From an uncultured Actinomycetes bacterium (GTDB lineage Bacteria; Actinomycetota; Thermoleophilia; UBA2241), in assembly GCA_963767005.1 (NCBI GenBank), contig CAVYCN010000011.1, positions 1 to 64,000 of the forward strand: 64,000 bases of DNA, in the 5' to 3' direction. Below are positions 4,723 to 35,206 of the stretch, piece by piece. Numbering within the stretch: position 1 is the first letter of the stretch; each line of letters opens with the position of its first letter. Both the position numbers and the translations under genes were made by a program. Below the pieces are notes generated by a model that was not told the DNA's origin, searched no databases, and saw nothing but the letters and a program-made list of their open reading frames with translations.

Positions 4723-6141
4723 ATGAGGAGCTCTGTCATCCTGGCCACGACGCAGCTGGACCTCGCGCGGCTCCAGTTCGCGGCGACGAGCATCTACCAC
4801 TTCCTGTTCGTGCCGGTCACGATCGGGCTCGCGGTGCTCGTCGCGGTGCTGCAGACCATCTGGCACCGCCGCGGCGACGAGGACTACCTGCGCCTGACGA
4901 GGTTCTTCGGCACGCTCCTGCTGATCAACGTCGCCGTCGGCGTGGTCACCGGCCTCGTGCAGGAGTTCCAGTTCGGCATGGCCTGGTCGTCGTACTCGCG
5001 TTTCGTGGGCGATGTCTTCGGCGCGCCGCTCGCCGTCGAGGGCCTCGCCGCCTTCTTCCTCGAGTCGACGTTCCTCGGCCTCTGGCTGTTCGGCTGGGGC
5101 CGCCTGCCCAAGGCCGTCCACCTCGCGACGATCTGGATCGTGGCCTTCGGCACGGTGCTGTCGGCGGCCATCATCATGGCGGCCAACTCGTGGATGCAGC
5201 ACCCGGTCGGCTACCGCATCGACCCGGCCACGGGCCGCGCCCAGCTCACCAGCATCTTCGCCGTCCTGCTCAACCCGCTCTTCCTCTGGGCCTACGCGCA
5301 CGTGCTCCTGGCGGCGCTCGTCACCGCCGCCGGCCTCATGCTGGCCGTATCCGCCTGGCACCTCAAGCACCGCTCCGACCACGACGTCTTTCGCAAGACC
5401 GCCCGCATCTCGCTGGTGGTGCTGCTGCCGGCCGCGTTCCTCGTAATGATCGTCGGCAGCGAGCTCGGCGTCTCCGGCGAGACCTACCAGCCCATGAAGA
5501 TCGCCGCCGGCGAGGCGCTCTGGAACACCCAGCAGCCGGCCTCGTTCTCGATCTTCCAGATCGGCGGCTTCAGCGCGAGCCACCCGACGCCGTCATTTGC
5601 GATCAAGGTGCCCCACCTGCTCTCGCTGCTCGCCACGAACTCGTGGAACGGCAGGGTGCCCGGCATCAACGAGGCGAACGCCCAGGAGCAGCGGCAGTAC
5701 GGGGCCGGCGACTACGTGCCCAGCGTCTTCATCAACTTCTGGTCGATCCGCGGCATGGCCTACCTCGCCGGCCTCGAGTTCCTGCTCGCGCTCTGGGGCC
5801 TGTGGGCGCTGCGCCGCAGCCGCGCGACCGTCTCGCCCTGGTTCCTGCGCATCGCCATCTGGGCGGTCGTGCTGCCCTTCATCATGAACACGCTCGGCTG
5901 GGTCCTCACCGAGGTGGGCCGCCAGCCCTGGATCGTGCAGGGGCTGCAGCTCACGAGCCGGGCGGTCTCGCCGTCGGTCGGCGCCACGACGATCGCCATC
6001 AGCCTCGTCCTGTTCGTGCTGCTCTACGGGCTCATGGCGATCATCGACGCCGCGCTCATGATCCGCTTCGCGCGCAAGCCCCTGGGGCCGCTGCCCGAGC
6101 TCGACGAGCAGGCCGTCCCCGTCCCCGCGATGACGTACTAG
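4723..6141 (+). CDS. cydA: Cytochrome bd ubiquinol oxidase subunit I
   Basis: LARLQFA..HFLFVP, QEFQFG, FFLESTF, QPMKIAA, GWVLTEVGRQPW motifs. Confidence 0.98.
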   Translation: MRSSVILATTQLDLARLQFAATSIYHFLFVPVTIGLAVLVAVLQTIWHRRGDEDYLRLTRFFGTLLLINVAVGVVTGLVQEFQFGMAWSSYSRFVGDVFGAPLAVEGLAAFFLESTFLGLWLFGWGRLPKAVHLATIWIVAFGTVLSAAIIMAANSWMQHPVGYRIDPATGRAQLTSIFAVLLNPLFLWAYAHVLLAALVTAAGLMLAVSAWHLKHRSDHDVFRKTARISLVVLLPAAFLVMIVGSELGVSGETYQPMKIAAGEALWNTQQPASFSIFQIGGFSASHPTPSFAIKVPHLLSLLATNSWNGRVPGINEANAQEQRQYGAGDYVPSVFINFWSIRGMAYLAGLEFLLALWGLWALRRSRATVSPWFLRIAIWAVVLPFIMNTLGWVLTEVGRQPWIVQGLQLTSRAVSPSVGATTIAISLVLFVLLYGLMAIIDAALMIRFARKPLGPLPELDEQAVPVPAMTY

Positions 6142-22187: not shown

Positions 22188-22997
22188 GTGAGGACCATGG
22201 GAGGGAGCGTGGGCGTCATCACCGCATATCGAGCGGGCGCGCGTCGCGAGCAGCGGGGCTTCAGCCTGATCGAGCTGCTCGTCACCGTGACCCTGGCCGG
22301 CATCATCTTCGTCGCGATGGTGCCGATGTTCGTGAGCGTGCTCAAGGGCACCTCGACGAGCGAGCGTCGCGTGATCGCGACCAACCTCAGTCAGGCGCGC
22401 CTCGAGGACGCCCGCATGCTGGGCTACGCCAACCTCAGCGCGGCCAGCCTGCAGAGCAACTTCGGCACGACCTTCACGGCAGCCCACGGCGGCGCCATCT
22501 ACAACATCACCTACTCGGTGTCGCCGGGGCCGACCAGCTCGGCCACGCCCACCCCCGCTTACAAGCAGGTGACGGTGAGCATCAGCCGCACAGGCCAGAG
22601 CTTCCCCGTGGCCAGCACCATCGTCCAGAACCCCGCCGTCCTGAGCACTGCCGCGTACTCGAGCCTGAGCGGCGGCGGCGGCCCGTACTCGATCACCGCC
22701 GCCTTCAAGGACGCGACCGAGGTCAAGTCGCCGGGCGTCTACGTCGTGCAGTACTGGATGAACGCGACGGCCACCCCGACCCCCACGCCGACCAAGACGG
22801 TCACGCTCTCGCCGTCGCTCATGCCGGCGGCGATCAAGACCGCGACCGTCCTGTTCACCAACATCCCGGGCGGCACGGCGTACGAGTACTCGGTCTTCTG
22901 CAACAGCAAGGACTGGACCGGCGCGCTCTACACGCCGCCGTTCCACCTGCTCAACAACGGCTGGGTCAAGTTCGACACCAACCCGGGCGGCTCGTGA
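22188..22997 (+). CDS. Type IV prepilin-like protein (PilV-like minor pilin)
   Basis: Class III signal RG|FSLIELLVTV with Glu5; Thr/Pro-rich body. Confidence 0.88.
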   Translation: MRTMGGSVGVITAYRAGARREQRGFSLIELLVTVTLAGIIFVAMVPMFVSVLKGTSTSERRVIATNLSQARLEDARMLGYANLSAASLQSNFGTTFTAAHGGAIYNITYSVSPGPTSSATPTPAYKQVTVSISRTGQSFPVASTIVQNPAVLSTAAYSSLSGGGGPYSITAAFKDATEVKSPGVYVVQYWMNATATPTPTPTKTVTLSPSLMPAAIKTATVLFTNIPGGTAYEYSVFCNSKDWTGALYTPPFHLLNNGWVKFDTNPGGS

Positions 22998-23806
22998 TGC
23001 GCGCCGCCCGCCGGTTCACCGCCATCAGGCCCGGCAAGCGCCGGTCGCGCGACGACGGCTTCACGCTCATCGAGCTCCTCGTGTCGATGGTCATCATGGG
23101 CGTGGTCAGCACGATGCTGATCGGCATCTGGATCGTGCTCACGCACACGGCCGCCTTCGCCCAGGCCGACAACACCGCGGGCGCCACGGCGCGCGACGCC
23201 TCCAACCGCATCTCGGCCGAGCTGCGTGACTGCCAGCCGTCCTCCTCGAGCAGCGTCAACCCGTTCATCTTCTCGATGGCGTGCACGTACCCGTTCAACG
23301 CCGGCACCGTCACCTGCGACGCCAACGACTGTGTCTTCTACTCCTCCTACAATAGCGCCGGCACCATGCTGAACAGCGACATCACCCCCAGCCCGGGCAC
23401 GACCGACTCTGGCGAGGCAGCGGTGCTGCCGACGGCGATCATCCTCGACACGTCGGGCACCGCCGCGCAGAAGACGCTGTGGTGGGTGCGTGACACGAAC
23501 AACGACGGAAAGTTCGACGCCGGCGACAAGGCGATCAAGCTGGCGACCAACGTCGTGAACACGGCGGCGAGCGTCAACAAGCCGATCTTCACCTACAACT
23601 TCGCGGCGACGAGCGGCAGTACCACGACGTACAGCGCGGGCAGCAGCCTGACCGCAGCGAACGTGTGGAACCCGCCGACGTCGTCGCTCGTCTCCATCAA
23701 CGTCGAGCTCGTCATCGATGCCAACCTGAGCGACAAGCCGGCCTACGTCGATCTCGTCTCCGTCGTGCGCCCGCGCAACGTGGGCACCAGCACGTCGGGC
23801 AGCTAA
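22997..23806 (+). CDS. Type IV prepilin-like protein (PilW-like minor pilin)
   Basis: DG|FTLIELLVSMVIMG; TGATG coupling to the previous gene. Confidence 0.88.
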   Translation: MRAARRFTAIRPGKRRSRDDGFTLIELLVSMVIMGVVSTMLIGIWIVLTHTAAFAQADNTAGATARDASNRISAELRDCQPSSSSSVNPFIFSMACTYPFNAGTVTCDANDCVFYSSYNSAGTMLNSDITPSPGTTDSGEAAVLPTAIILDTSGTAAQKTLWWVRDTNNDGKFDAGDKAIKLATNVVNTAASVNKPIFTYNFAATSGSTTTYSAGSSLTAANVWNPPTSSLVSINVELVIDANLSDKPAYVDLVSVVRPRNVGTSTSGS

Positions 23807-23810
23807 GGGA

Positions 23811-25697
23811 GTGGCCATGCGCAGGCACAGTAACCAGGACGGCTTCGCGCTGATCCTCCTGATCGGCATCGTGGCCGCCCTCGCGATCCTCGCGTCGATG
23901 CTCGTCGTGATGCTCGACAACCAGCAGCACGCGACCGAGAAGGACCAGCACAGCAAGACCTCGATCTACTACGCCGACGCGGCCCTGAGCAGCGCGGCCA
24001 GCGCGGCGATGAACGACACGAGCTGGCTGAGCACCGGCTATACGGTGAGCCAGACGACCCTCAACCAGAGCTTCAGCGCGTCGATCGGATCGGCGGTCAC
24101 GCCGGTCTACAGCGTCTACGACAACCTCTCGCCGGTGAACACGGCCATCAACTACGACTCCAACGGCGACGGCGAGGTGTGGGTGCAGGCCTCGGTGACC
24201 TACCCGACGACAGGGCCGAACAAGAAGACCAGCATCGTGCGCGAGCTCGTCTCGTCGTCGACCAAGACCTCGATCCTGCCCAAGGCAGCCGCCTGGACCG
24301 ACACCAACATGGCGCTCACCGGCACGAGCAACATCTACGGCGTGAACAACGACGGCACGTCCGACGACTCGGGCGCGCCGTACGTGACGAGCATCATGTG
24401 CGGCGGCGACTTCACCGGCAACAGCAGTACGAACCTGGCCTACCCCGGCCACACGGTGCAGTCGCTCGGCCTGCAGGTGAACGGCAAGGTGTCGGGCACG
24501 CCGACCCTGTCGTGGACCAAGGGCGGCGTCGGCATGCTCTCCGACTACTTCGACCAGGCCCATCAGGCCGCGCTCATGACCGAAGCGCAACTCGCCATCG
24601 CGGCCTACACAAACCCGTCACCGACGAACCCGGTCTTCAATGTGGACTCGAGCCACAATCCGACCGGCACGAGCGTGAGCAGCACCAGCACCGTCGATCC
24701 CTTCAAGACCTGGCTGTCATACCTGTCGAGCAGTGGGAACACGTGGACGGCGCCGACCGGCACCAACTACATCGTGTCCAGCAGCTTCAACTACACCAGC
24801 GGGGGCTGGGGTGCCGGCAACCTGACGCTGAGCGCAGCGAGCGGCAAGTCAGCCACCTTCAACTTCAACAAGCTCTACGTAGCCGGTAACCTCACTATCT
24901 CGGGCAACGTGACGCTCAACACCACCGGCCTCTACGTGGGCGGCAACCTCACGATCACCGGCACCACGGCGGCGAGCGTCAGTGACCACCTGGGGCCGCT
25001 CTATGTGGGCGACGGCACGACCGGCCACGGCAAGGTGCTCTGGGAGGGCTGCACCAACAGCAACGCGACGACCCTGAGCGTCAGCACGGCCACCGTGGCG
25101 GCCCCGACGTTGCCGCAGCCGATGTACTGCAAGATCCTCTCGGTCGACGGCGACCTCACCTCGGGCTCGGCCGACAACAGCACCTACGACACGACCAACA
25201 AGCCCGGCCCGACCAACATCACGCTGGGCGATATCTGGGTCGACGGCGACGCCGGCACCGGCGACGTGGCCGTCAACTTCTCCGGACCCTCGGCGGTGGC
25301 CTCGACTGTGCTGTGCACCGTCCTAGCGACCACCGAGCAGTCGCACTGGAACGGCGACGTCAACTGCGGGACCCTCGCTCAGCCCATGGTCTACTTCATG
25401 CAGTGCGACAACGACGGCCTGTACAGCAACACGATGCAGTACAGCTCGACCGGCACCTTCACCGGCCTCATGATCCTCTTCGAGGCCGAGTGCGACATCA
25501 ACTCCGGACAGATCATGGGCGCGGTCATGGAGGGCACTCCCGCGGCGAGCGACGACACCGGCACCGACCTCACGCTCTCGGGCAGCGCGACGATCTGCTA
25601 CAACCAGACGGTGATCAACAACTGCACGAGCGACTCGCTCACGACGACCAGCACCGGTGTCGTGGCGGGCTCCTGGCAGCAGCTCACGTCGTACTGA
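23811..25697 (+). CDS. Large PilX-like minor pilin with Ser/Thr/Asn/Gly-rich C-terminal domain
   Basis: DG|FALILLIGIV lacking Glu5, plus YYADAAL, as in PilX N-termini; 628 aa. Confidence 0.8.
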   Translation: MAMRRHSNQDGFALILLIGIVAALAILASMLVVMLDNQQHATEKDQHSKTSIYYADAALSSAASAAMNDTSWLSTGYTVSQTTLNQSFSASIGSAVTPVYSVYDNLSPVNTAINYDSNGDGEVWVQASVTYPTTGPNKKTSIVRELVSSSTKTSILPKAAAWTDTNMALTGTSNIYGVNNDGTSDDSGAPYVTSIMCGGDFTGNSSTNLAYPGHTVQSLGLQVNGKVSGTPTLSWTKGGVGMLSDYFDQAHQAALMTEAQLAIAAYTNPSPTNPVFNVDSSHNPTGTSVSSTSTVDPFKTWLSYLSSSGNTWTAPTGTNYIVSSSFNYTSGGWGAGNLTLSAASGKSATFNFNKLYVAGNLTISGNVTLNTTGLYVGGNLTITGTTAASVSDHLGPLYVGDGTTGHGKVLWEGCTNSNATTLSVSTATVAAPTLPQPMYCKILSVDGDLTSGSADNSTYDTTNKPGPTNITLGDIWVDGDAGTGDVAVNFSGPSAVASTVLCTVLATTEQSHWNGDVNCGTLAQPMVYFMQCDNDGLYSNTMQYSSTGTFTGLMILFEAECDINSGQIMGAVMEGTPAASDDTGTDLTLSGSATICYNQTVINNCTSDSLTTTSTGVVAGSWQQLTSY

Positions 25698-26757: not shown

Positions 26758-28462
26758 CTACTCCCCCTGCAGGTCGCGGCGCGCGAACAGCAGGACGCCG
26801 GCGAGGCCGGCGCCCACCCCGATCGCGACCATCACGGCAGCGCTCGTCCAGTCGGGCGCCACGGCCGGCGCCGCGGCCATCTCGTGGAACACCGAGCTGT
26901 CGAGCACCCAGTGGCTCACCTTGACCGTGCCGGCGAGCACCTCGACCAGCACCGACCAGGTGAGCAGCGCGTAGACGGCGAGCGCGGTCACGCGCGGCCG
27001 CAGACCGAGCACGAGCGTGCCGGCGCCCAGGATGCAGAGCGCCGGCGGCACCACGTTCAAGCCCGCGGCGAGCAGGGTCGGCAGGGGCACATGCCCCGCG
27101 TGACCCACCCCGCCGAGCCAGGCGCAGAGGCCGGCCAGCAGGCCGCCGGCCACCGTGGCGGCGACGGCCAGCGCCAGGCGGCCGGCCAGCCACGAGCCCC
27201 GCGAGACGGGCCGCACCAGCAGGTTGTCGAGGCGGCCCTGGGCCTCGTCGTCCCGGGCGGCGCCGAGCTGGCCGGTGCCGACCAGCGCGACGAGCACGGC
27301 CAGCATGAGGAAGGTCACGCCCAGGTAGGCGCGCGCCCCGGCGCCGGGCGCGCCGAGCCGCGAGAAGACACGCGCGATCGTCGGCGAGCTCGTGATGGCG
27401 CGCTCGGCCGACCACGCCACCGCCCCCACGACCACGGCGAGCGCGGCGATCGCCGCGGCCCAGCCGGCGAGCGTGCCGCGCGAAAGACGCAGGGCAAGAC
27501 CGAGAGGACCGAAGAGCAGCCGGGTGCGCGGCGGCCCGCCGGCGCGGTCGGGCAGCAACGCGGCGCCCAGGTCGCGGCGGCCGGCCAGGACGCACGGTGG
27601 CCGCGCAGAGCACGGCCACCGTGGCGGCGGCCGGCAGCAGCGCGAGCGGTCGCGGCGCGGTGAGCGGTCGCAGCTCCTCGACCCAGCCGAGCGGCGACGC
27701 CCAGCGCAGCCACTCGACGCCGACGCCCGAGTCGGCCACGAGGCGCAGGGCGTAGCTCGCGCCGAGCACCGCGGCCGCGTAGCCGGCCGCCTGGCGGGCG
27801 GTCGCGGCGAGCTGGCCGGCGAGCGCTCCGACCGCCAGGAACACGACGCCGCTGGTGACGAGCGCGAGGGCGAAGTAGGCGGCTGCTCCGGCGCCGATGC
27901 CGACGCTCGCCGAGCGCCCCACGGCGGCGAGGATGACCGCGGTCGCGGCCCACAGGCAGAGGGCGCCGAGGCCCAGGCCGGCGAGGGCCTGGGCGGCGGC
28001 CCGCCGCCGCGTCGTGACGCCGGCCAGCAGCAGCTCCCAGCGCCCGGCGTCCTCCTCGCCGCGCAGCAGGCGCGAGCCGGTGAGCAGCCCCCAGACCGCG
28101 ACGATCAGGCTCGACGAAGGCGAGGTACTTCCAGGCCGTGAAGCCGCCGACGGTGTCGAGCCGGCGGGCCGGTCCGACCAGGGCGTTCAGGCCGACGTTC
28201 GCGCCGAAGAGCTGCACCAGTCGCGCGCGCTCGGCCGGCGTCCTGTAGCTCGTCGAGTACGTGAGCGCGCCGCTGCCGATGTACAGGCCGAACACGACGC
28301 CCCAGACCAGGCCCCAGCGGGCCGCGCGGCGCGCCGTCCAGCGCGCGATCAGCAGGCCGGGGAAACGGCCGCTGGCGGCGGGCGCGGGCGCCGCGTCGCG
28401 GGGCGGCGCCCGCCGCGCCCGTGCCCGCCGCCCGCCGCGCCCGGGCGCGCGTCAGTCGCCAT
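26758..28462 (-). pseudogene. ABC-2 type exporter permease, frameshifted (pseudogene or sequence error)
   Basis: RGEEDAGRWELLLAG, WASPLGW, RRDLGA and the final FARRDL are split over several frames, with breaks near 28400, 28112 and 27592. Confidence 0.8.
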
Positions 28463-30113: not shown

Positions 30114-30168
30114 GGAAGTAGACTGACCGACGGTCGGTCACCGACCGACCGTCGGTCAGTCTACTTCC
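30114..30168. promoter_or_regulatory. Perfect 26-bp inverted repeat with nested palindromes (probable double TetR operator)
   Basis: GGAAGTAGACTGACCGACGGTCGGTC-ACC-GACCGACCGTCGGTCAGTCTACTTCC. Confidence 0.75.
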
Positions 30169-30201: not shown

Positions 30202-30906
30202 TCAGGCGGCCATCGGCTCGCCGCTCTCGGTACGCGGCATGCCCCGGTAGCCGACGACGAGCTCGGGACGGCCGGCGAACAGGAAGCTCGCGTTCATGTG
30301 GTCGCGCTCATCGAGACCGATCCGGCGGAACACGTCGGCCCAGGAGCGAAACGAGCCGAACTCGCCGACCAGACCGCTGCCCACGGGCTGGTCCTCCCAC
30401 TCGGGGTGGTCGGCCACGAGCTCGGCGTAGTAGTGCTCGGAGTGGTCCTCGAACTCGGCGTTCAGCAGGTACGCGCGGCCGACGCCAAGGCGCGCCATCG
30501 TCCACATCATGGCCGTGTAGCCCGCGAGCATCAGGAACGGGATCGGGCGCGTCATGTAGCGCGGGTCCTCGGTGCCCTCCTGCCGCAGCTTCTCGTTCAC
30601 GACGAGCAGGTGCCAGTACTCGTTGTCCTGGGCCTCGCGCGCCCAGCGCACGACCTCGCGCCCCTCGCGATAGAGCACGGGGTCGTCGTAGGCGAGCGAC
30701 ATGCGGCCGAGCTGGTGGCGCTCCCAGGCGCGGTAGGGGATCGACGCGAGCGCCTCTACCATGCGCGCCTTGGCGAGCGTCGTCTCGGGTCCCGCGAGCC
30801 TGTCCATCGCGCCGAAGAAGACGCGCGCGGCCGCCGAGTACGGGTAGCGCGGCCGGGCCGCCGTCGCCTGCTGCTCTCCGCGAAGATCGATGCCTTCCCG
30901 TTTCAT
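30202..30906 (-). CDS. Alternative oxidase/PTOX-like di-iron carboxylate protein (C-terminal part of ORF 30202..32031)
   Basis: VEALASIPY, DNEYWHLL, AYLLNAEFEDHSEHYY, DVFRRIGLDERDH match the four AOX/PTOX iron-ligand motifs; own ATG with a G-rich RBS. Confidence 0.78.
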   Translation of the reverse strand: MKREGIDLRGEQQATAARPRYPYSAAARVFFGAMDRLAGPETTLAKARMVEALASIPYRAWERHQLGRMSLAYDDPVLYREGREVVRWAREAQDNEYWHLLVVNEKLRQEGTEDPRYMTRPIPFLMLAGYTAMMWTMARLGVGRAYLLNAEFEDHSEHYYAELVADHPEWEDQPVGSGLVGEFGSFRSWADVFRRIGLDERDHMNASFLFAGRPELVVGYRGMPRTESGEPMAA

Positions 30907-32025
30907 CGTGACCCCCCTTGCCCCCGACTCTCCGTGCGCGCCAGCCTTTCCGCTGCGTGCAGCGCGAAAACCGTTGCCGGGCGCCGAGCCGGGTGGCCCT
31001 GCCGCCCCGGCCTCGCCGCCTGCCCCGGCCTCGCCGCCTGCCCCGGCCTCGCCGCCCGGCCCGGCCGTCCGTTCCTCGGCGAGGGTCGTGCGGACCTCCT
31101 GCCCGTGGCGGCGCTCCTCGACCTTCGCGAGGCGCCGCAGCGCGCGCCGGTCGGCCGCGGTCGGGGGGCGGTGCAGGATGCTGCGCGGCCACAGCCGCTC
31201 AGCGGTGACGACGTTGAGCTCGGCGGCGTAGAGCGTGACCTGCCCTCCCACGTACAGCCAGCCGAGCAGCCCGATCACGACGGCGAAGGTGCCGTAGGTG
31301 TTCGACGCCCCCCTCACCTCGTGCCCGACGTAGTAGCCGCCGAGCGCCTGCAGGACGGTCCACGCCGCGCCGGCGACGAGCGCGCCGGGCAGCACGGTCG
31401 ACCACGTTACCCGGGCGACCGTGAGCACGCGGAAGGCGAGCAGGAACACCGCGACGTTCAGCAGGAGCGAGAGCGCGACCCCGCCCACCGTCCACCACCA
31501 GGTGCCGCTGCCGCCGCCGAGCCCGCCCACGGCCGCGGCTACGACCAGGATCACGCCGAGGATCGCCAGCATGCCGACGCCGCGGGCGGCCGACATCATG
31601 ATGCTGGGCCGCCGCTTGAACGGCACGTTCCAGACCGTGTTGAGCGCGTTCTCCAGTTGACGTACGACCTGGGTGCCCGCCCAGAGCGCGATCGCGATGC
31701 CGAGCGCGAGCGAGAGCGCGGTGTGGCCGCCCAGGCTGTGCACGTTGCGGCGCAGGTCGTTGCCCACCACCGGGAAGTTGACGAGCGCCGAGTCGAGGAC
31801 GCGGTGCTGCAGGCCGGGGTGACCCGCGAGCACGATACCGAGCACGCTCACGAGCACGAGGAGCAGCGGAAAGATCGAGAAGAAGCCGTAGTAGGCGATG
31901 AGCGCGGCCAGGTTCCCGGCCTGGTCCTCGCTGAACTTGCGCCACGTGGCAAACGTGAAGGCGGGCACGCGGTGGCGTTGCTGCAACCTGTCGACGCCCT
32001 CGCCGATGCGACGGATCACGCCCAT
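30907..32025 (-). CDS. YihY/virulence factor BrkB family membrane protein (no stop; in frame with the AOX-like domain)
   Basis: LAALIAYYGFFSIFPLLL, ALNTVW, YGTFAVVIGLLGWLY, AAELN. Confidence 0.88.
31004..31056. repeat. 18-bp tandem repeat x3 encoding GGEAGA
   Basis: (T)GCCCCGGCCTCGCCGCC repeated three times in the YihY-AOX linker. Confidence 0.85.
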
Positions 32026-32033
32026 GTCCACGC

Positions 32034-32059
32034 ATACCCGCGGCTGCGGGAGAGCAAGC
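32034..32059 (-). promoter_or_regulatory. SigB/SigF-type stress promoter candidate
   Basis: GCTT-N16-GGGTAT ending 8 nt before the yihY ATG. Confidence 0.45.
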
Positions 32060-33478: not shown

Positions 33479-35206
33479 TCAGCTCCAGTGGTGCCCGGAG
33501 CCCGAGTGTCGCGAGCGACCGCCGTGCCGGCCGCCGCCGCCCTCGTGACCACCGTTCCCGCCGCCGTGACCACCGTTCCCGCCGCCCCAGTGATGGCCGA
33601 TCGACGGACCCGAGCGACCGCCGGCCTGGCCGTGCGACCAGCCCCCACGCGACTGCCGCGACGCGTGCCGGCCGCCCTCGTGAGACCTGGCGTGCCGGCG
33701 CGCGGCCGATGACCCGGCGGGCTCGCCGCCGTTGCGGCCGCGGTGGCGGTCGCCGTGGCGTGAGCCGCTCGACTCGTGACTCCGTGACCAGCTCTTGTGA
33801 GTGGGGCCGATCCGGTGAGCGAGCAGGGCCACCGGCGTGGTGGACCAGCTCCACAGCGACTCGCCGCCGGCGTGACGGCCGCCGCCCGAGCCATGACCGC
33901 CCAGCGCCGAGCCGCCCGCGCCGCCGCCCGACGCGCCGCCGCCGGAGCCGCTCGACGAGCCGTTCGATGCTGACGCGCCGCCCGAGGCCGACGTGCCGCC
34001 GGGATCCGCCGTGGACGAGCTCGTCCTGACCAGGCTCACGGTGCGCACGACGGCGACGGCCGGTCCGCTCGAGGTGCCCGCGCCGCTCGTTGCCGCGGTC
34101 TGTGAGCCGGTGCCCTGGGAGCGGGACGTGCTCGCCGCGGGACGGCGCGAGGAGGCCGGAGTGGGGACCTGAGCGGTCGGCGAGTGCGACGCCGCCGCCG
34201 ACGGTGCCGGTGGTGTGGCCGGCCGCAGATCGAGCTGTGAGACGTAGGCCGCCATGCCGGCGACGGCCACGAGGCAGGCCGCCGCGACGGTGTAGGCAGC
34301 GGCCCTGCTCGCCAGGGCGCGGCCGACCCTGGTCATGACGAGCGTCACGGCGGCAAGCGCCCCGCCCGTGGCGAGCGCCGAGCGCGCGCCCGGGGCCGCC
34401 TCGCGTCGTGGGGCGGCGACCGGTACGAACACCGGCGGTACCCGCAGAGCGGCAGGCAACGGGGCTGGAGCCGCCACGAGGGCGAGGCCGAAAGGCCCGG
34501 CCGGCCACGAGCGGGTGACTTTGCGGCAGACCCTGCAGTACGAGGCGTGCTCGTGGAGCCTGCGATCCTCGTCGCCGTCGCCCGCGGGGCGGCCGACGCC
34601 GCCGGCGGCGACCTGCTCGGCGAGCCGGCAGGCCGCCGGTCGCTCGGGCTCGGTCGCTTCGAAGGCCGCGAGGAACGCCTCGCGCGCCTTGAACAGGAGC
34701 GCCCTGGCGGCATCGACCGACAGGCCGAACACCTGGGCGAGCGCCTGGGGACGAAGACCGTGGATGTCGTGCAGCAGGAGAGCGACCGCGAGAGGCTCGT
34801 CGACCGTACGCAGCGCCTGCCCGAACCGGCGGCCGAGATCGGTGTCGTCGCTCAGGGCGAGCGCGCCGGCGGGCAGCGCCTCGCCTCGCGAGCCGGCGGG
34901 CGCCGCGTGCTCGCGGCAGGCGGCGAGGGCGGCGCGGTAGAGCCGCGCCTCGAGGTCGACGGCGCCGTCGTCGAGCAGGATCTGCCGGTAGGCGACGACG
35001 AAGGTCTCGTTCACGACGGCGGCGGCCTCGTCGGCGGGCACCAGGCAGCGTACCAGGCCGAACACCGAGAGCCGGTGGGTTTCGAAGAAGCGGATGAACG
35101 CGTCGCGTTCGCCGGAACGCAGAAGGGTCACGAAGGCGTCGGGGGGCTGGCCGGCGTTGCCGCCGGGCAGATCGCGTTCGCCGGGGGGTTCGAACGGTCT
35201 AGCCAT
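33479..35206 (-). CDS. ECF-type sigma factor fused to a zinc-finger (ZAS-like) domain, TM helix and low-complexity tail
   Basis: Region-2-like AFIRFFETHR...VVNETFVVAY, region-4-like LLLHDIHGL..QALAQVFGLS...LLFKAR, then HASYCRVC, a hydrophobic helix and a Ser/Gly/His-rich tail. Confidence 0.72.
   Translation of the reverse strand: MARPFEPPGERDLPGGNAGQPPDAFVTLLRSGERDAFIRFFETHRLSVFGLVRCLVPADEAAAVVNETFVVAYRQILLDDGAVDLEARLYRAALAACREHAAPAGSRGEALPAGALALSDDTDLGRRFGQALRTVDEPLAVALLLHDIHGLRPQALAQVFGLSVDAARALLFKAREAFLAAFEATEPERPAACRLAEQVAAGGVGRPAGDGDEDRRLHEHASYCRVCRKVTRSWPAGPFGLALVAAPAPLPAALRVPPVFVPVAAPRREAAPGARSALATGGALAAVTLVMTRVGRALASRAAAYTVAAACLVAVAGMAAYVSQLDLRPATPPAPSAAASHSPTAQVPTPASSRRPAASTSRSQGTGSQTAATSGAGTSSGPAVAVVRTVSLVRTSSSTADPGGTSASGGASASNGSSSGSGGGASGGGAGGSALGGHGSGGGRHAGGESLWSWSTTPVALLAHRIGPTHKSWSRSHESSGSRHGDRHRGRNGGEPAGSSAARRHARSHEGGRHASRQSRGGWSHGQAGGRSGPSIGHHWGGGNGGHGGGNGGHEGGGGRHGGRSRHSGSGHHWS

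Follow-up and report, generated by a model that had tools for sequence, protein, structure and literature searches.

An in-frame join between a yihY-family gene and a putative AOX/PTOX-type oxidase gene in a Thermoleophilia genome, probably through a recently lost stop codon

Does one long open reading frame (ORF) in the genome of an uncultured Actinomycetes bacterium of the class Thermoleophilia encode one protein or two, and what does its second half do? The frame lies in a window of 64,000 nt (GenBank assembly GCA_963767005.1, contig CAVYCN010000011.1, positions 1 to 64,000), where it runs without a stop for 609 codons on the minus strand, from 32031 to 30202. It begins as a YihY/BrkB-family membrane protein and ends as a putative di-iron protein of the superfamily formed by the alternative oxidase (AOX) and the plastid terminal oxidase (PTOX). 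The first-pass annotation, made from the letters alone, had described the stop-free frame correctly without giving its strand, and had offered two options, a true fusion or two coupled genes with a lost stop. Its second option is favoured by the TGA of the closest relatives and by the intergenic character of the linker, and its first, taken as a conserved fusion, did not stand. We give a probability of roughly 0.6 to the reading that a yihY gene and a lone AOX/PTOX-type oxidase gene have been joined through a missing yihY stop, that the loss is recent and unselected, and that the oxidase is made from its own start and is predicted to pass electrons from menaquinol to O2, yielding water without proton pumping. 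The elements of the joined frame are as follows; L004 is a locus of a congener, and L128 and L130 are metagenome loci.

31006..32025, minus strand: yihY/BrkB-family membrane-protein gene proper (ORF residues 3-342; PF03631, TIGR00765)
31004..31066, minus strand: 18-bp tandem repeat coding for (GGEAGA)x3 (3.5 copies, 95% matches)
31003..31005, minus strand: GCG codon, ORF residue 343, at the place of the yihY stop TGA of L004, L128 and L130 (from alignment and translations; codon placed by eye)
30907..31002, minus strand: apparent former intergenic DNA, read as ORF residues 344-375 (from GC by codon position and a matching gap in the relatives)
30965..30978, minus strand: conserved non-coding element GG(C/T)AACGGTTTTCG (in 5 of 5 aligned loci)
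30911..30921, minus strand: G-rich ribosome-binding site GCAAGGGGGGT of the oxidase gene (core invariant in 5 of 5 aligned loci)
30202..30906, minus strand: gene for a 234-aa putative di-iron protein of the AOX/PTOX superfamily (E51, E96, H99, E153, E200, H203, Tyr160; add 375 for ORF numbering)

The identity of the first part as YihY/BrkB, claimed from the sequence alone, was confirmed by two profiles above their cut-offs. ORF residues 35-279 match Pfam BrkB PF03631 (E 1.8e-42; 146.2 bits against a cut-off of 33.7), the part also passes TIGR00765 (78.1 bits; cut-off 73.15), and it is 90% identical to the stand-alone 345-aa YihY of L004. A simple hydropathy scan gave five hydrophobic segments followed by an Arg-rich tail, with 10 R/K against 4 D/E in residues 276-310. 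Because the congener keeps the ATG at 32025 and has GGG in place of the GTG at 32031, the gene likely starts at 32025, giving 607 aa.

yihY was found directly upstream of the oxidase gene in three other loci, L004 (genome G011), L128 and L130, whose oxidases are 88-90% identical to that of the window. In all three, YihY ends with ...RRAG-TGA, and the distance from this TGA to the oxidase ATG is 128, 137 and 102 bp, respectively; in L130 the TGA and the oxidase ATG already share a frame. The window genome lacks this stop kept by its closest relatives, and the two genes are therefore joined: at the corresponding place, at the end of the repeat, codon 31005-31003 reads GCG. The (GGEAGA)x3 stretch noticed earlier corresponds to the 18-bp tandem repeat, which was not found as a repeat in the alignment of L004, L128 and L130. 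The segment around the stop is occupied in the window by repeat copies with many substitutions, more than a single-base change, and the junction in the three relatives is longer by 21-47 nt.

The last 32 codons of the so-called linker (residues 344-375) appear to be old intergenic DNA. GC content by codon position in residues 346-375 is 0.73/0.80/0.70, with no codon periodicity, compared with 0.71/0.48/0.96 and 0.71/0.47/0.94 in the two genes. The element GG(C/T)AACGGTTTTCG lies 70, 71, 71, 72 and 77 nt from the oxidase ATG in the five aligned loci, in all three frames, and probably serves the oxidase gene as an operator or as a piece of its own promoter. The internal ATG with a G-rich ribosome-binding site, also predicted at first pass, is present, at 30906 and 30921-30911, respectively. 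Since the 160 bp before this ATG are 82% GC and contain no stop in any of the three frames, a stop-free junction is, once the yihY stop has gone, no more than would arise by chance. It follows from the junction being open in every frame that loss of the stop gives certain read-through, and an in-frame join in one case of three. A recent loss of the stop is the likeliest history.

No conserved YihY-oxidase fusion was seen among the loci and proteins compared; the relatives are unfused and the linker has no codon pattern. Among 2,352 candidate proteins of 128-410 aa, 1,130 were homologues of the oxidase, and none was found among 4,041 candidates of 411-2,000 aa, which the search tool's own note rates as weak evidence. 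A third set, 3,289 candidates of 334-1,066 aa, contained two homologues, both with the oxidase first and without a BrkB match, and the best 150 of 647 profile matches were all of at most 306 aa, with no YihY fusion. The true fusion architecture suggested earlier was thus returned by none of three protein searches, and by none (0 of 3) of the relatives with adjacent genes. Two almost identical database proteins are P0124 (232 of 234 positions) and P0125 (231 of 234); the protein record of P0124 gives a length of 234 aa and places it on a 904-kb contig. The two homologues of the third set, P0126 and P0127, in which the oxidase runs on into a downstream SLT-type frame, look like read-through artefacts of GC-rich assemblies.

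Adjacency of the two genes is likewise rare. Counted by hand over loci that show 1.2 kb or more of upstream DNA, yihY precedes the oxidase gene in 1 of 71 from GTDB and 1 of 42 from metagenomes, plus L128; a further 9 GTDB and 38 metagenome loci had less than 1.2 kb, L128 being among them and showing the end of yihY. In L194 there is only a distant BrkB gene, located downstream. Of 61 related genomes, 15 had the oxidase and 31 a YihY match, and the two genes were far apart in five genomes besides the window genome (G000) and G011. Adjacency is confined to loci 88-90% identical to the window, and the idea of a conserved yihY-oxidase module was not upheld. Among 162 loci, no neighbour of the oxidase gene was common to more than 5 of 86 groups, and we propose no partner or operon because no gene neighbour is widely shared.

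The second part was assigned to the AOX/PTOX di-iron proteins from its motifs VEALASIPY, NEYWH, EFEDH and DERDH. All four are found in the C-terminal part, and both the predicted fold and the ligands agree with the assignment. The iron-ligand order E, ExxH, E, ExxH is present, with the catalytic Tyr seven residues after the third Glu. For residue conservation, 190 profile matches in loci were reduced to 177 of full length and 154 unique sequences; all 154 carry E51, E96, H99, E153, E200, H203 and Y160, as well as D199 before the last Glu, and 149 have N95 before the second Glu. These seven residues correspond to E123, E162, H165, E213, E266, H269 and Y220 of trypanosome AOX in the printed alignments, and in an alignment with PTOX of cyanobacteria and AOX of proteobacteria the ligand columns agree in 11 of 11 rows. 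The congener's own oxidase gene (L004:6001-6704) carries a 1-bp deletion after codon 169 and appears in the database as a 174-aa fragment, P0030.

An AlphaFold2 model of the 234-aa protein (predicted local distance difference test score 90.5) matched trypanosome AOX 3vv9 best, with Z 18.6 and a root-mean-square deviation of 3.1 over 204 aligned residues; the next ferritin-like fold followed at Z 12.1, and COQ7 at Z 11.2 over 135 residues. The top ten rows of a Foldseek search of the PDB were all trypanosome AOX, and three viral matches had E at or below 0.001, the named one being a cyanophage PTOX. The modelled fold is that of AOX, a four-helix bundle with predicted membrane-binding helices. 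Across 53 diverse family members helix 25-38 is amphipathic and helix 122-140 hydrophobic, and hydropathy gave no transmembrane segment; the oxidase would bind one membrane face unaided, via two hydrophobic helices. The window protein itself gave no PF01786 match. Of the 53 members, 30 match PF01786 at E<=0.01, and six homologues chosen for their Pfam mark scored 24.7-29.4 bits against a cut-off of 22.7. In the three Atlas clusters listed, which are named as AOX at 0.96, 39-51% of the members carry PF01786. Searching the PDB by sequence, with the window protein, one homologue and two profiles as queries, did not reach AOX; matches to a glutathione transferase and to R2lox were rejected as chance level.

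As for its place within the superfamily, the family appears to form a clade of its own, outside the AOX clade, nearer to PTOX by profile, and failing the published signatures of both. The distinction between AOX and PTOX is drawn in the consulted sections of two papers (PMC4909761; 10.1101/2021.01.20.427478), and the signatures ERMHLMT and LEEEA for AOX and GWxRR and HHLLxME for PTOX are those listed, after Nobre et al., in the PASV preprint (10.1101/2021.01.20.427478). ERMHL and [LF]EEEA were found in 0 of 154 sequences, and so were GWxRR and HHLLxME. The AOX signatures were derived from plant sequences, yet are largely kept in the bacterial AOXs aligned here; the PTOX test is strict, because cyanophage PTOXs also depart from GWxRR and HHLLxME. 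Aligned by hhalign, the family matched PTOX with a probability of 98% (E 2.1e-13, 178 columns) and AOX with 32% (E 4.7e-4), compared with 99% for AOX against PTOX. The likeness to PTOX motifs pointed out at first pass was borne out by this profile comparison and by the aligned ligand motifs. In a quick tree of 62 rows (53 family, 4 AOX and 5 PTOX; midpoint root, long branches), the 53 family rows formed one side of a branch with a Shimodaira-Hasegawa-like approximate likelihood ratio test (SH-aLRT) support of 99, the 4 AOX rows another (99), and the family stood apart from 4 PTOX rows (97); its joining to PTOX had a support of 45, at a point where long branches meet and with 5 PTOX rows. A 301-genome phylum search for canonical AOX returned only the present family. 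The annotated PTOX of Synechococcus phage S-N03 (L234:493-1116) differs greatly from other cyanophage PTOXs (28% to S-SSM7; on a long branch): AY stands in place of PY, and the third ligand is in EVEA.

The oxidase gene occurs as a lone gene in Thermoleophilia and in many anaerobe-type lineages. The record titles of 80 GTDB loci name Thermoleophilia, Deltaproteobacteria, Syntrophaceae, Omnitrophota, Cloacimonadota, Bacteroidales, Anaerolineae, Planctomycetota, Lentisphaerota and Nitrospirota, among others. A neighbour scan of 73 proteins, 71 of them from 105 listed, showed a flavodiiron protein following the oxidase gene in three related loci, with ferritin or Fur nearby. In L043:4759-9317, L053:4026-8058 and L073:302-4957 the family gene is clustered with an Fpg glycosylase, a flavodiiron protein and ferritin; Fur is also present in L043 and L053, and L053 and L073 carry the label Cloacimonadota. 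Rubrerythrin and Fur lie near the oxidase gene in one Bacteroidota locus of the scan. A plasmid search with one homologue gave no match, and the phage match was rejected as spurious.

Carrier physiology was surveyed in 25 non-actinobacterial genomes, a hand-picked and therefore biased set of mostly anaerobe-labelled metagenome-assembled genomes (MAGs) of unstated completeness. Cytochrome bd was found in 1 and haem-copper oxidase in 0 of them; MqnA/D occurred in 5, and MenA over the cut-off in 9 others. UbiA-family matches, present in 24 of the 25, were not counted towards quinone synthesis, since this family is a broad one. A strong CydA match (E<1e-100, hand count) was seen in 1 of 9 carriers, compared with 130 of 301 genomes (Fisher p 0.08; p 0.011 without the centre genome), a hint that the oxidase gene and cytochrome bd exclude each other, with kin non-independent and completeness uncertain. 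The window genome has CydA and COX1, and MqnC over the cut-off. The one copy of cytochrome bd subunit I found in it lies in the window at 4762-6078 (plus strand), about 24 kb from the oxidase gene.

Taken as a sequence of events, the preferred reading would run as follows. Expansion of the 18-bp repeat over the end of yihY would have removed the stop, and read-through would have landed in frame by a one-in-three chance. Translation of the oxidase would still begin at the internal ATG, behind its own ribosome-binding site, with a long YihY-oxidase product as a possible by-product. Seated on the inner membrane face through two hydrophobic helices, as AOX is, the oxidase would need no anchor, because it would bind the membrane through its own helices. 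Menaquinol is the inferred donor since the host has a futalosine pathway; it would be oxidised at the membrane, and O2 would undergo four-electron reduction at the di-iron site without proton pumping. A menaquinol:O2 oxidase activity is likely for the family, judging by analogy with AOX and PTOX. In the window host the enzyme may act as an overflow valve beside cytochrome bd and the haem-copper oxidase, and in anaerobes as an O2 scavenger.

Several observations weigh against this reading, and they concern both the junction and the enzyme. No sequencing run covered half of the stretch, no RNA run was among those listed, and no contig spans the junction among those compared from six runs. Because neither read nor contig bridges it, the lost stop rests on one assembly, in which a frameshifted ABC-permease gene lies close by. 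The join could then be an assembly error in a GC-rich repeat, the organism having two genes and a normal yihY stop, a view that we regard as rather unlikely. It draws on the junction being a tandem repeat of 82% GC, on indels near 28111 and 27591 that change the frame of the permease gene, which in L004 is intact over 586 codons, on the stand-alone record of the near-identical P0124, and on the two database proteins that read through from the oxidase gene into an SLT-type gene. However, a misassembly would have to account for a stop region replaced by much-substituted repeat copies and shortened relative to three relatives, and a 151-nt contig from another run is identical to 31054-31204, with zero differences, reaching into the first repeat copy and ending short of the stop position. 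At the other extreme, selection might maintain the fusion as one working protein in which YihY anchors the oxidase or supplies its substrate. The ORF is intact and in frame, and in four close loci the genes lie next to each other. Positively charged segments beside membrane helices tend to stay in the cytoplasm, and the Arg-rich YihY tail would by this rule place the oxidase on the cytoplasmic side, where AOX-type enzymes work. Against this, the stop is retained by each of the three relatives that show both genes, the protein searches contain no YihY fusion, yihY adjacency is seen only at 88-90% identity, the linker has no coding signature, and the oxidase has predicted membrane-binding helices of its own, so that we hold a selected fusion to be highly improbable.

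Independently of the fusion question, the di-iron protein could scavenge O2 or peroxide with electrons from a soluble donor, or could hydroxylate a membrane lipid or quinone in the manner of COQ7; this is doubtful in our judgement, though it deserves serious weight. Counting against the main reading, the window protein has no Pfam or NCBIfam match, the Foldseek matches in the PDB reach E-values of 0.002-0.006 only, and identity to AOX in the structure matches is 11-14%. Among the quinol-site residues of trypanosome AOX, D100 is kept (D35), whereas R118 is replaced by Lys in 154 of 154, R96 by Phe and W247 by Gly. The ligand spacing is 45/57/47 against 39/51/53 in trypanosome AOX, and COQ7 is matched weakly by one member of the family (E 0.0086, below the cut-off). 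Furthermore, 11 of the 25 carriers, MAGs of unstated completeness, had neither MqnA/D nor MenA over the cut-off, and flavodiiron protein, ferritin or Fur, and rubrerythrin are neighbours in some loci. These oxidative-stress neighbours would fit O2 reduction equally well, however, and AOX stands 6.5 Z above all other ferritin-like folds, COQ7 with its 135 residues included. The catalytic Tyr and the Asp before the last Glu are universal in the family, the Asn before the second Glu nearly so (149/154), and the membrane-facing helices are kept.

Upstream of the joined frame lies a GAF-GGDEF gene, and downstream a TetR gene and an ABC transporter. One further element precedes yihY:

32034..32039, minus strand: GGGTAT hexamer, 8 nt before the yihY ATG (from the sequence; GGGAAT at the equivalent place in L004)

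This hexamer is possibly the -10 box of a leaderless transcript, of the SigB/SigF type. Both GGGTAT before yihY and GGTTT-N15-CGGAAA before the oxidase fit the SigB/SigF-type promoter consensus. A genome scan for the pattern, without shuffle control, gave 11 matches at 9 places, and a SigB/F/G model gave eleven matches in the window genome, on contigs C2, C3, C4, C12, C18 and C19, one of them over the cut-off; the SigB/SigF stress module proposed at first pass is possible, the genome having this one sigma factor over the cut-off and cytochrome bd. The genome has many alternative sigma factors for its 3.4 Mb. In the window itself, an ORF at 33479-35206 (minus strand) has a weak match to sigma-70 region 4 (E 2.1e-5, below the cut-off), together with a CxxC stretch resembling a zinc finger and a long tail of low complexity, and is a possible fusion of an extracytoplasmic function (ECF) sigma factor and its anti-sigma factor. 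Just upstream of the TetR gene, at 30117-30166, a long inverted repeat AGTAGACTGACCGACGGTCGGT...ACCGACCGTCGGTCAGTCTACT, with a similar one in L004 and L130, is likely a TetR operator or a terminator of the oxidase gene. The ABC-2 permease gene at 26758-28400 (minus strand) is broken over several frames, through either an assembly error or decay into a pseudogene. A cluster of ORFs at 22188-25697 (plus strand) carries N-terminal GFSLIELL, GFTLIELL and GFALILL motifs, which we take to be type IV pilin-like.

A 2025 survey of oxygen reductases, in the portion consulted, limits AOX to Pseudomonadota and PTOX to Cyanobacteriota, with taxa known only from MAGs largely left out (PMC7618691). The restriction of prokaryotic AOX to Pseudomonadota is restated in the consulted part of a later paper (10.64898/2026.09.27.754813), and a putative AOX in an anaerobe's genome was dismissed as probable contamination in the consulted passage of another (PMC6431628). 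The predicted oxidase occurs in bacterial groups for which papers report no such enzyme, and its branch is likely unstudied. Our literature search, which extended to few subscription journals and no supplements, yielded no description of this branch or of a YihY-AOX fusion. The balance tips slightly towards a third branch of the AOX/PTOX superfamily, a single-gene, haem-free menaquinol:O2 oxidoreductase in Thermoleophilia, Desulfobacterota, Bacteroidota, Omnitrophota, Cloacimonadota, Chloroflexota, Planctomycetota and others, which would be the sole respiratory-type O2 reductase in many anaerobes and is caught here in a newborn YihY fusion. If this is true, an oxygen reductase in other phyla has gone uncounted in surveys, and the branch would bear on the origin of AOX and PTOX and extend their chemistry to menaquinol. 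The fusion itself is likely an accident and offers no handle on the function of YihY.

Compared with known systems, the first part of the frame is a YihY/BrkB inner-membrane protein that passes both family cut-offs (PF03631, TIGR00765) and differs in that its stop is absent and the frame runs into the next gene. In a 2026 preprint a structural link between YihY and mitochondrial carriers is proposed (10.64898/2026.03.31.715626). The oxidase shares with PTOX the Pro-Tyr after the first ligand (154/154), E-x-H-[AS]-x-x-x-Y at the third ligand (153/154) and all six ligands, and differs by an extra N-terminal segment with a conserved helix. PTOX belongs to cyanobacteria, cyanophages and plastids, whereas the present family is found in non-photosynthetic lineages and here in a host with menaquinone-pathway genes. 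AOX of mitochondria and Pseudomonadota (3VV9) is the best structural match, with corresponding ligands and Tyr and with D35 equivalent to D100, although the family is only 15-18% identical to three bacterial AOXs. The AOX-L/AOX2 proteins of trypanosomatids are likewise a divergent lineage of the AOX fold; in the part of that study consulted, however, AOX-L lacks five of seven active-site residues, whereas the present family keeps the six ligands and the Tyr (10.64898/2026.09.27.754813).

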